A stretch of 33,311 nucleotides of DNA from a virus (lineage: Duplodnaviria; Heunggongvirae; Uroviricota; Caudoviricetes), in the IMG/VR virus record IMGVR_UViG_2740892230_000032; one strand, given 5' to 3'. Shown here in pieces: positions 12,001 to 15,000 of this stretch; the stretch's first letter is position 1, and each line of letters starts with the position of its first letter. Position numbers: made by a program.

Positions 12001-15000
12001 GTTCATTCTCTCACCTGAAACGGGTGCCATATCGGCTGAACCTCAGCAACCAGTTGACGGGGACTCTCGTCCCCGTCGCGGTTTTCCTACTGCTTACACT
12101 GTAAGAACGCCGCAAATTGTGACCACATGATGTTAAGTCTGAACTCACAGTGAGAGTTGTGTATCATCCAGACAATCATCAAAATAGTTATGCATAAAAT
12201 GCTGACTATGATCGTTTTTTGCGGCATAGCGCTTGACTCCTTTTACAGAGAGGCGCTAACCTTCTACTTGCTTAAGGTACGAAGTGTTAGGGCCTCGGGT
12301 TAACGTTAAGTTGACTCGGGGCCTTTCCACATCAGGCCTTCAGGTTCACCCTCCAGCCATCAGCCGAAAGGCATCCACGCATAATTTACGGTTTTTGCCC
12401 TGTACGGGCAATAAAAAACCCGCCATCACAGCGGGTAGTAAACGGTTACCGGATACAGGTCAGAATTTCAGGCCAATGCCAGCAGTAACGCCACTCGTGC
12501 GCCAGTCGCCAGAGCCGGAACCTTCGTAAGCCACATCCAGTGTAACACTCTCATTCAGGTTAAACTGTGCACCTGCAGCCCACGCAAGGGAGGTTTTTTT
12601 CGTGCTGTTGCTTTCAGAAAATCCGCCACTACTGTTAATATTGTCCTTAATTTTCAGGTCAGCGCTAACTTTAGCAACGCCCATCCCTGCCATCGCATAT
12701 AAACTCATGTACTGATTAACCCGCCATGAAGGCCCCGCTAACAGACTCCAGTAATTCGCCCTGATATCCGTTCTGGCAGAAGCTGCCGGATTCTTAATCT
12801 TCCTGGTATGATCGGCTGACTGCACATCAATAAATGTCTGTGAGTTAGTGAGAGAACGCGTCCATGTAAAAGAGGTGATAACGCCAAAATCATCCGTTAT
12901 CTCGTAGCGATACCTGATATTAATGCCCTGTGGATTTTTATCCTTGCCTTCATATCCACTGACCCGACCATCTGTATATTCGCCCAATGAAGAAAAGTAG
13001 TTTCTGTTGACGAAATGACTGAAAGTCTCCCTGTTATGAGCAGTCGCATCCTTTACAAAATCCTTCAGTCCCGGAAACTGAAAGTGCGCATACCCCAGAG
13101 AAATTGTATGCTCTCCTTCTGCTGCATGTGCAGATAAATTTACACAGGCAATCCCGGAGATTGCACACACAACCAGTGTTGCTATACTCTTCATTTAAGA
13201 TATCCTGTATTCAGATAACACGCTAAACTTTTTAATAATACATCTTTTTAGACATTTTAAATGAATATTAAAGACTCGCTTCAACTAATCATATACTGAT
13301 GTATTAATAACCAGGACCTTATCTATATACGGCTTTCGAATATCCCATGTTGCACCACCGGAATAATGCTCACAGGAATATATTTTATTTCCTGTAGCAC
13401 CAGTGGATGTGGTATAAATCGGTCGATCATAAGGAGTTCTTTTCCAGTTATAATACCCGACCAGTGCAGGCATGATTGCGCATGGATATCCAAGGTCCTT
13501 TTCAAATTTGATATCAACAGGTATTAACTTCGCGTCAAGCAGCATCATTTCGCCATGATAAATCATCTCACCGTCCGGGTTATACATGGCGATACCATAC
13601 TCAGAAGGTGGAGTAACCATATTCGCGAAAGCATAAACCGTCGTAACACCAGGGTTCGTTCCCCTGACAATTACATGAAGCCTTAGTGCATGATATCCAT
13701 CAATCTGTTCATGCGTGTACATGACATCGGCCTTCTTCTCTGTTCTGATAAAGAAAAAACAACTTTTGCCTGACGGGATTGATGTTTTAAAAAAAGACTT
13801 TTCAGTCGCCGGTATGGTGCCTTTGTTGATCAGACACTGCGGCGTAAAACCTGGACTTATCCATACGCTGCCATCCGGCTTCATAATGCTCAAACCGTAC
13901 ATAACACTTATCCCCAGAATGTATAAATATAAGATCCCATACCCTGCTCAAGATTCGACCACGTCACCGTATTGTCATTAATGGTTATCTTCGGTACTTT
14001 CCGATCCGCAAATACATTATTCCAGGGAAATAAACAACATACAGCCTGCAATGATTTCCCGTCGGGTTTATTAGTGTACGTCTTTGAGCCAGACTCCGCT
14101 GTAAATCTGTCCAGGAAAAATACTGGAGTCAGCACGCCCGTAACATTAACGTTATTTCTGTTATAAATGGCAAAACCGTATTCCAATACTCACCTCCTGA
14201 TCAGCGTAATCTGCCTATGCGAACAGCCAGTCGTCCATTCTGATCATAAACCTCAATTTTATCATTGCGGATCACCAGTCCTACATTCTGATTAGAGTAA
14301 CGAATTGTCAGTTGCCCTTGTGACGTAACACTGAAAAGGCCTCCAATATTCAGGTTACCCTGAGAATCAACCTGAAAGTTTCCGTTCTGAATAACGGCAC
14401 TCCGGATAACTGGCGAAGTGATACTTACCCCGGCTTTTACCTCATCCGCCACAACCTTCCGCGACACCAGTGTTTCAATCACCGCGTCATAAATCATCGC
14501 TTTCGGGATCACAACCTTGCCACCTGATACCGCAAACGGATAGGCGGTGTTATCCGGGTTGTTCGGGTCAAAGACAAACAACTGCGACGCAGAAATTGCA
14601 ACCTGACTTACAGGCCTGCCTTCACTGTCTTTTCCGGCGACAATCCCGATCCCCGCAGTGATACCATCAACTCCCGCTTTTTTTGACCACATTGCCAGAA
14701 ACGCCTCACCGCCTTCTTTATCCAGTTTAGTGATGCGCTTGTCGACCTCATTAAGCGATTCACTGGTTGACGAATCCAGTGTGCTAATGCGGGTTTCAAT
14801 ACCACCAATCGTTCTTGTCGTTTCTTCCCTGAGAGTCCCCACAACTTCGGTTGTCTTAATTGCAGCATCCTTTACAGCCTGCCCCTGCGCGTTTTTTATT
14901 TCTTTACGCAGCTCGGACACAACCGGCGACTTTGCAGCCTCATCGCGGATCTGGTCAATGATGGCCTTCACGCCGATCTGTGTTTGTGCCTGAGTGCCTT

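Follow-up and report, generated by a model that had tools for sequence, protein, structure and literature searches.

A probable hok/sok-type unit without mok beside lom in a Shiga-toxin phage

In the late region of a 933W/TL-2011c-type Stx phage, a short open reading frame with Hok-like features lies next to the lom gene, with no mok frame apparent beside it. Is this an intact type I toxin-antitoxin unit or, as the first-pass annotation of the window had suggested, a variant or partly decayed locus? Here the window is the whole stretch of 33,311 nucleotides from IMG/VR record IMGVR_UViG_2740892230_000032, to which all positions refer. We estimate at roughly 80% the probability that the ~355 nt running from 12376 to 12022 on the minus strand make up an intact type I toxin-antitoxin unit of the hok/sok kind, in which a Hok-family gene for a 46-aa, HokA-like membrane peptide is accompanied by its own antisense-RNA control region, the toxicity and the RNAs being predicted from sequence.

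A HokA-like peptide of a catalogued kind

The gene (12227 to 12087, minus strand) opens with ATG and comprises 46 codons followed by TAG; as reported in the first-pass annotation, a Shine-Dalgarno sequence precedes it (GGAG, 12240 to 12237, minus strand, 9 nt to the ATG). Its product, MPQKTIIVSILCITILMIVWMIHNSHCEFRLNIMWSQFAAFLQCKQ (46 aa), matched the Pfam HOK_GEF profile above the gathering score (PF01848; 24.4 bits against 22, E 2.2e-5, profile positions 7-42 of 42), which was the search that the earlier reading had proposed, and matched PHROG 251 with E 7.3e-20. The best NCBIfam model was the HokA equivalog (NF007290; E 1.3e-9), at 38 bits and thus below its cut-off of 89. HokA of K-12 was the closest characterised peptide found (43% identity), sharing the MPQK start, the WMI motif and both directly encoded cysteines, but it has 50 residues as compared with 46 in the window. 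The peptide is HokA-like, and is not HokA.

The Hok hallmarks noticed earlier (the MPQK start, an N-terminal helix, CE and AAF) were borne out by alignment. Residues 5-22 (TIIVSILCITILMIVWMI) are hydrophobic, in keeping with a single N-terminal helix. Aligned with HokA and HokW, the peptide keeps C12, T14, C27 and E28 without variation, and the AAF motif aligns as well. These four residues are equivalent to C16, T18, C31 and E32 in the published Hok logo (bioRxiv 10.1101/2025.08.07.668861). At the logo's L30 and E41 the window peptide departs from the majority of Hok peptides, with H26 and Q37 in place of L and E. Searching PDB sequences with the peptide gave nothing meaningful, and a word-indexed protein search returned close E. 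coli relatives only.

The description of the gene as unannotated holds for the window itself and for the 933W and VT2-Sakai (Sp5) records, from which the gene is omitted, but not for other phage records or for PGAP. In TL-2011c, YP_007001484.1 has the coordinates of a 100% tblastn match, and homologous units (~364 nt of the query covered) occur in 1750 of the 5426 complete E. coli genomes, with the PGAP label 'Hok/Gef family protein' (e.g. WP_001135718.1) in the rows sampled. The gene also belongs to a catalogued group: Escalera-Maurer et al. (2025-26 preprint; bioRxiv 10.1101/2025.08.07.668861) describe Hok peptide clusters 82 and 72, and the cluster-82 entries 1297 and 1301 are one residue off the window peptide, while the exact peptide was not found in the portion of the supplementary catalogue accessible to us. 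Entry 72_1589 of the same catalogue is the 933W/Sp5 allele at the same lom-adjacent site. The gene is therefore of a known kind, already annotated (RefSeq Hok/Gef) and catalogued, and is not new. The preprint states that mok, Sok and mRNA structure were left unanalysed.

Predicted RNAs and folds of the control region

Upstream of the unit lies lom (12460..13194, minus strand), a 244-aa ORF for an outer-membrane protein of the Ail/Lom family, named Lom or Ail/Lom in the annotations of TL-2011c, 933W and PGAP, and followed by an intrinsic terminator found by a terminator scan (12410..12436, minus strand; stem 12436 to 12418, then a T run). The leader of about 230 nt reported earlier spans the whole interval between the stop codon of lom and the start of hok; the leader itself would be about 150 nt, counted from a predicted mRNA start near G12376. 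This start lies downstream of a putative promoter (12383..12411, minus strand) with a -35 element TTGCCC (12411 to 12406), a 17-nt spacer and a -10 element TAAATT (12388 to 12383), and in the related units the -10 hexamer reads TAGATT, TAAATT, TACATT or TAGAAT at the same distance from a GGG start. On the opposite strand we read a Sok-like antisense promoter (12233..12262, plus strand) with a -35 element TTGACT (12233-12238), an 18-nt spacer and a -10 element TAACCT (12257-12262), an arrangement (TTGNNN-17/18-TAACCT) kept in 73 of 74 related units. Both promoters were read by eye, with positional conservation as their only support: a consensus promoter scan called no sigma-70 site in 11800-12700, the antisense promoter being missed because its -10 element is weak.

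The predicted antisense RNA (12266..12326, plus strand; ends inferred) would begin with a single-stranded 5' tail and carry a 16-bp terminator hairpin (12289-12325). This stretch folds more stably on the plus strand (-36.8 kcal/mol, z -6.1) than on the minus strand (-21.2 kcal/mol, z -1.9), and the antisense-strand hairpin is more stable than its sense counterpart in 28/28 variants, compared by alignment columns. The earlier expectation of a Sok-like RNA within 12230-12400 is thus supported by the sequence as regards its place, with promoter and hairpin conserved where they were expected, although the predicted span (~12266-12326) is narrower. Sequence-level support for a putative cis-encoded, Sok-like antisense RNA in the leader is strong.

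The leader (12216..12376, minus strand) is homologous to Rfam RF01794, to which it gave a full-length match (model positions 1-157) in a relaxed search, at 29.2 bits and E 1.3e-4 and so short of the gathering score of 59; at gathering thresholds Rfam gave no match across the whole window. At its 5' end, a tac-like element GGAUGCCUUUCGGCUGAUGGCUGG (12353..12376, minus strand) is predicted to pair in the full-length RNA with an fbi-like 3' element UCAGCCGAUAUGGCACCC (12022..12039, minus strand), and, when the 3' end is gone, to fold locally into a hairpin. The start annotated for the downstream ORF (12030) falls within the fbi-like element. Among loci from different genomic contexts, homology stops just past GGCACCC at the 3' end.

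The predicted 5'/3' duplex has an energy of -24.4 kcal/mol in the window, where a G3 to A change in the 5' element weakens the pairing by ~6 kcal/mol, and a mean of -28.3 kcal/mol in 41 relatives (distinct 5'/3' combinations), as compared with -16.7 for shuffled 3' ends. No covariation between the two elements was seen when own and cross duplex energies were compared (-28.3 vs -27.8 kcal/mol); with so little variation at the 5' end, the comparison shows conserved complementarity only. The full-length RNA folds at -139.4 kcal/mol (z -5.7) and is closed by the 5'/3' pairing, and in the fold of the trimmed RNA the 5' hairpin forms and the antisense target is unpaired, so that both the closed and the refolded state are present among the predicted folds. 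RNAalifold, run on the 74 units, chose a conformation resembling the trimmed one and did not report the 5'/3' closure.

Two further structures involve the coding region and its 3' flank. The start-codon region AUGCCGCAA (12227 to 12219) is predicted to pair with UUUGCGGCG (12108..12116, minus strand), which holds the Phe-Ala-Ala codons; all nine pairs of this helix are standard in 74/74 sequences, eight being invariant and one alternating between U-G and C-G, and this pairing accounts for the DNA-level conservation at both ends of the ORF. In both predicted folds, the Shine-Dalgarno GGAG is paired with a CUCU motif (12250 to 12247), and these pairs are kept in 71-74 of the 74 sequences. Past the stop codon, the stable hairpin described earlier was recovered as a GC-rich stem (12078 to 12055, minus strand) with compensatory changes at four pairs among the 74 relatives, and by analogy with the R1 system (PMC9841398) it is likely to be the protective 3' stem of a processed mRNA.

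Prediction and conservation together suggest a course of events similar to that of R1 hok/sok. A hok mRNA would be made from its own promoter, its 5' end paired with its 3' end in the tac/fbi manner, the Shine-Dalgarno sequence held by CUCU and the start-codon region by the Phe-Ala-Ala codons. By analogy with R1, slow 3' trimming to the GC hairpin would then free the 5' end, and the RNA would refold and expose an 11-nt stretch of the leader, where a ~60-nt antisense RNA, from a conserved promoter overlapping the hok ribosome-binding site, would pair and lead to the blocking or destruction of the mRNA; upon loss of this unstable RNA, the peptide would be made and would damage the inner membrane. 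What the window is predicted to have in common with R1 hok/mok/sok (parB; PMC9841398) is, besides a small Hok peptide, a full-length mRNA closed by pairing of its two ends that refolds when its 3' end is trimmed, and a putative short antisense RNA with a Sok-like hairpin and a promoter overlapping the hok translation start region. The systems differ in that R1 needs a 70-codon mok overlapping hok, which the window lacks, in peptide length (46 aa here, 52 in R1), and in the window's score to the Rfam model, well under the threshold.

A second hok locus of Shiga-toxin phages

The unit lies on the late-gene strand within the late region, and is quite likely a self-contained 'moron' inserted between lom and the next late gene. 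Shiga-toxin phages are already known to carry hokW/mokW/sokW, which belongs to the same phage group and toxin family and has the same PHROG label; hokW/sokW was characterised experimentally as a type I toxin-antitoxin pair that is RNase III- and Hfq-dependent and aids phage release (PMC8621323). We considered and rejected identity with hokW, which sits elsewhere in 933W, near attR (58460-58734, as compared with 45660-45797 for the lom-adjacent locus); the window also had no match to one primer of the hokW-sokW study. The window peptide is 21-24% identical to HokW, and the hokW locus has an in-frame mokW that the lom-adjacent one lacks. Apart from hokW/sokW, these phages thus have a second hok locus in the lom-adjacent unit.

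The role of this locus may be in prophage retention, or in helping lysis as shown for hokW. It could be that the peptide chiefly serves as an accessory to lysis, being produced at induction from late read-through transcripts like HokW in Sp5, and does not act as an addiction or post-segregational killing module. The placement of the gene among late genes on their strand agrees with this, as does the finding that, with hokW-sokW present in Sp5, growth arrest after mitomycin C comes sooner and phage release is twice as high (PMC8621323); however, the unit has a promoter-like sequence of its own and a full antisense control region, and it also occurs in the non-lytic contexts of IncI and IncF plasmids, which makes lysis on the whole unlikely as its main role. 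A lysis function would in any case concern the biological role of the unit, and is compatible with its interpretation as a type I toxin-antitoxin locus.

Regulation in the absence of mok

That no convincing mok ORF is present was confirmed: the window has an in-frame TAA 18 nt upstream of hok and no in-frame start. The same holds in 74/74 of the units in which a mok frame was sought, all with an in-frame stop at -18 and no in-frame start. In 24 of the 74, to which the window does not belong, an upstream ORF reaches the hok Shine-Dalgarno. By contrast, hokW, taken as a control, has in-frame starts at -27 and -57, the latter being that of the 213-nt mokW annotated in 933W, and mokA is annotated in K-12 as an in-frame upstream extension of hokA. 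Across the sequences compared, mok is missing from the whole subfamily, as an ancestral trait and not a recent loss. Control must consequently target hok itself, or pass through a short leader ORF that does not overlap it.

The second of these routes would have a short leader ORF replace mok, with the antisense RNA acting by covering it. Translation would begin at a GAAGG-N6-AUGUGG element (GUG at 12330), continue in the window for 24 codons to a UAG (12258 to 12256), and end with a ribosome ~6 nt upstream of the CUCU anti-Shine-Dalgarno, where it would melt the helix and permit hok initiation. A GAAGG-preceded AUGUGG is found in 69/74 units, the GUG frame of the window stops 28 nt before the hok ATG, and translation of R1 mok is needed only up to the hok Shine-Dalgarno (PMC9841398). 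Yet reading frame, stop position and length (1-87 codons) differ greatly among the units: five have no AUG, and in others the AUG opens an ORF of a single codon. One of the two frames does stop within 36 nt of the hok ATG in 53/74 units, but by hand calculation this is near a rough chance estimate for two frames, and the AUGUGG element could be kept for RNA structure alone. We regard this replacement of mok as distinctly unlikely.

Far less probable still is that the locus is a non-functional hok remnant, decaying after the loss of mok and persisting only by hitch-hiking with lom: the missing mok frame, the Rfam and NCBIfam scores below threshold, the G to A change in the 5' element and the inability of the chromosomal hokA, hokB and hokC loci to mediate post-segregational killing (earlier work, as summarised in bioRxiv 10.1101/2025.08.07.668861) would agree with it, but the 46-codon ORF is intact in 72/74 related units with a dN/dS of ~0.27, unit boundaries hold across the unrelated contexts of lom, P2 ogr, an IncI plasmid and a Mu-like element, the antisense promoter and strand-asymmetric hairpin are conserved together with the other RNA control elements, and mok is lacking in every member, which places its absence at the origin of the subfamily. 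By these alignments the toxin ORF is under purifying selection, and the earlier idea of a variant or partly decayed locus finds no support as far as decay is concerned. Cluster representatives also fall outside the non-toxic set of the preprint, in which 45 homologs were tested and only 19_179, 60_1482 and 69_1540 are named non-toxic in the text; 72_1589, 72_1621 and 82_1289, listed in the supplement among the cloned constructs, are none of these three (bioRxiv 10.1101/2025.08.07.668861).

In the intact hok/sok-type unit that we favour, sequence comparison shows a toxin core swapped between subfamilies within an unchanged regulatory frame: the window leader is 99-100% identical to the 933W type, as compared with 56% for the core, which is 92-94% identical to that of cluster-82 loci. 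A tentative reading, somewhat less likely than not, is that the HokA-like 46-aa subfamily represents a naturally mok-independent branch of hok/sok, in which hok would be controlled by the antisense RNA either directly or by way of a leader ORF that varies and does not overlap it, and in which the core would be exchangeable by recombination. On such a reading the antitoxin would recognise only the leader, and the toxin core could therefore be exchanged between loci without breaking control.

The core swap illustrates how the toxin of a type I system can change with its RNA antitoxin left as it was, and whether mok is required for the control of hok is a question for which this subfamily provides a natural test. 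Because the gene is absent from the 933W and Sp5 reference records, a second hok locus has been overlooked in the best-studied Stx2 phages. The 2021 study removed hokW-sokW only (PMC8621323), so that the second locus was still present; if Sp5 and 933W indeed have two hok systems, the phenotypes published for hokW-sokW deletion may give too low a measure of what Hok contributes to lysis, and this contribution to lysis timing and phage release bears on the release of Shiga toxin.

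The lom-adjacent toxin gene

The 46-codon ORF at 12227->12087 on the minus strand starts with ATG, is preceded by a GGAG Shine-Dalgarno sequence (12240->12237, minus strand, 9 nt from the ATG) and encodes the peptide MPQKTIIVSILCITILMIVWMIHNSHCEFRLNIMWSQFAAFLQCKQ. The first-pass annotation had taken this ORF and its ribosome-binding site for a Hok-type gene, and the assignment is correct: the profile check suggested there gave 24.4 bits against Pfam HOK_GEF (gathering score 22), and the peptide matched PHROG 251 (“MokW-like host killing”) over its full length (E = 7.3e-20). HokA was the best NCBIfam model (E = 1.3e-9, under the equivalog cut-off), and the peptide was 43% identical to K-12 HokA and 21% to HokW (BLASTP). 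C12, T14, C27-E28 and A39/F41 do not vary when the peptide is aligned with HokA and HokW and, as in HokA, both cysteines are encoded directly. The upstream neighbor is lom, a 244-aa Ail/Lom-family gene (12460-13194, minus strand) with a terminator at 12436->12418 (minus strand; terminator scan), and the hairpin previously noted past the hok stop codon was found, GC-rich, at 12078->12055 (minus strand). Every element named in the first-pass annotation is thereby accounted for.

The region shares 99% identity with Stx phages TL-2011c and phi367 and 94-97% with many other short-tailed Stx phages. The description of the gene as unannotated holds for 933W (NC_000924.1, 45660-45797) and VT2-Sakai (NC_000902.1, 44701-44838), the two best-studied Stx2 phages, whose reference records leave the lom-adjacent hok gene without a feature, but not elsewhere: window-type genes are labelled “Hok/Gef family protein” by PGAP, “MokW-like host killing” in RefSeq TL-2011c, “small toxic polypeptide” in phi191 and “prophage host toxic membrane protein” in P13374-type phages. 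The locus is thus already annotated and catalogued, and its novelty is low. Downstream of hok, ten Ns (11722-11731) separate two near-identical copies of ~89 nt (window 11633-11820), which looks like a scaffolding artefact; it inflates the adjacent ORF (11530-12030) to 166 aa, XXXX among them, whereas TL-2011c and 933W have this gene at 402 nt (133 aa).

A hok/sok-like RNA design without mok

A hok promoter read by eye (TTGCCC 12411->12406, 17-nt spacer, TAAATT 12388->12383, minus strand) would likely start the hok mRNA at ~G12376, the same place at which the Rfam model of the hok mRNA leader (RF01794, ending at the AUG) begins; the leader matched this model over its full length, under the gathering score (29.2 bits, E = 1.3e-4). 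The leader of roughly 230 nt proposed earlier corresponds to the distance from the lom stop to the hok start, and the mRNA leader itself is likely ~150 nt. The full-length RNA (12378->12022) has a predicted fold of -139.4 kcal/mol (z = -5.7), in which 5’ GGAUGCC..CGGCUGA and 3’ UCAGCCGAUAUGGCACC are paired, as in the tac/fbi arrangement. This 5’/3’ duplex averaged -28.3 kcal/mol over 41 distinct combinations, as compared with -16.7 for shuffled 3’ ends; a search for covariation in these combinations found no difference between own and cross pairs, indicating that the complementarity is conserved without covariation. In the predicted fold of the 3’-trimmed RNA, the 5’ end forms a local hairpin and an 11-nt leader stretch (the AAGCAAGUAGA region) is freed from pairing. 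The hok Shine-Dalgarno is paired with CUCU, and AUGCCGCAA with UUGCGGCGU (Phe-Ala-Ala codons), in both the full-length and the trimmed predicted folds. Among 74 distinct related units drawn from IMG/VR and from E. coli records, the nine pairs of the latter helix are standard in all 74 (eight fixed, one U-G/C-G), and this pairing accounts for the DNA-level conservation of codons 1-4 and of the final ten. The post-stop hairpin carries compensatory changes at four pairs.

The third base of the predicted mRNA (12374) is A in the window, phi191 and one further compared locus (L031), and G in most units; GGAUGCC rather than GGGUGCC creates an A-C mismatch against the 3’ GGCACCC, weakening the predicted duplex from -30.7 to -24.4 kcal/mol. 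The fbi-like 3’ element (12022-12039) shares positions with the start codon annotated for the next gene (12028-12030; ATGGCACCC). Where the unit sits in a P2-like, Mu-like or plasmid context, GGCACCC is followed instead by a terminator-like hairpin; on the same strand of the Stx phage, the next terminator-like site is at 11922->11905, within the downstream ORF.

A Sok-like RNA had been expected in the leader, and a predicted plus-strand promoter faces into it (TTGACT 12233-12238, 18-nt spacer, TAACCT 12257-12262), in an arrangement kept in 73/74 units. The plus strand of 12262-12340 has a predicted folding energy of -36.8 kcal/mol (z = -6.1) and forms a perfect 16-bp hairpin at 12289-12325; the complementary minus-strand stretch, on which three plus-strand G-U pairs become C-A mismatches, attains only -21.2 kcal/mol (z = -1.9). 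The antisense hairpin was the more stable in all 28 distinct variants (means -19.4 vs -12.3 kcal/mol). This strand asymmetry provides good sequence-level evidence for a predicted Sok-like RNA of ~60 nt (~12266-12326), with an unpaired 5’ tail complementary to the leader where it varies most.

The reported absence of mok was borne out: the hok frame is closed by a TAA 18 nt before its ATG, and no in-frame upstream start occurs in the 74 units. Control of hok may accordingly be mok-independent. The hokW control has in-frame starts at -27 and -57, the latter giving the 213-nt mokW annotated in 933W. An upstream ORF reaches the hok Shine-Dalgarno in only 24/74 units, at differing positions. In the window, a conserved GAAGG-N6-AUGUGG element starts an ORF of 8 codons (from AUG) or 24 codons (from GUG), and the 24-codon ORF stops 28 nt short of the hok ATG; in relatives such ORFs range from 1 to 87 codons, and the AUG is missing in five units. 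In 53/74 units, one or other of the two leader frames terminates no more than 36 nt from the hok ATG, a proportion that by rough estimate is not clearly above chance.

Distribution and mosaic structure of the unit

The homologous unit (~364 nt of query covered) is present in 1750 of 5426 complete E. coli genomes, at up to 9 places per genome, and on 33 plasmids. It adjoins lom in Stx phages, ogr at the end of P2-like prophages, and com/mom-like genes, and lies near trbA on an IncI plasmid. Homology between units begins at the -10 region and ends directly after GGCACCC, and these limits mark the unit as a self-contained module. Some prophage contigs carry two units of the window’s subfamily, ~100-400 nt apart (L038, 4318-4669 and 5040-5392; L116, 5545-5895 and 6000-6355; L008, 556-696 and from 1028).

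The suggestion of a partly decayed locus does not hold. The 46-codon ORF is intact in 72/74 units with a pairwise dN/dS of ~0.27, which marks a selected coding gene that is neither a chance ORF nor decaying, and the lack of mok across the 74 units makes it a subfamily trait rather than decay of the window copy; the locus is intact. When the window locus (toxin gene 12087-12227) was compared with L005 (933W), L038, L116 and L008, identity to the 933W-type lom-adjacent locus was 99-100% in the leader, 56% in the coding core and 97-99% in the 3’ part; the corresponding values for loci elsewhere encoding cluster-82 peptides were 83-85%, 92-94% and 79%. Recombination replaced the toxin core and left the regulatory frame around it unchanged. 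A further recombinant form is protein P0005, in which an N-terminus of allele-B type is joined to a C-terminus of allele-A type.

A second hok locus of Stx phages

The window locus is not hokW: 933W carries hokW/mokW/sokW at 58460-58734 near attR and the homologue of the window locus at 45660-45797. The window locus represents a second hok locus in Stx phages. A 2806-aa ORF at window 183-8603 (minus strand) has the length (8421 nt) of the 933W gene ‘LPD5 domain-containing protein’, ~1 kb beyond which the 933W hokW locus lies; the equivalent place would fall past the end of the window’s contig.

A recent survey cataloguing 32,532 hok loci (bioRxiv 10.1101/2025.08.07.668861) includes, in its supplement, the 933W allele of the lom-adjacent locus (construct 72_1589) and a P2-type relative (72_1621), and its cluster 82 (representative 82_1289) holds window-type peptides with one residue different. 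Of the homologs tested there, 42/45 were toxic, the three named exceptions being sequences other than 72_1589, 72_1621 and 82_1289; mok, Sok and mRNA structure were outside its analysis, according to its authors. The second locus is absent from the text of the hokW-sokW deletion study in Sp5, the VT2-Sakai prophage (PMC8621323). Given that the 933W and VT2-Sakai records lack a lom-adjacent hok feature, that deletion left the second locus in place. Sp5 and 933W have two hok systems, a presence that has been overlooked.
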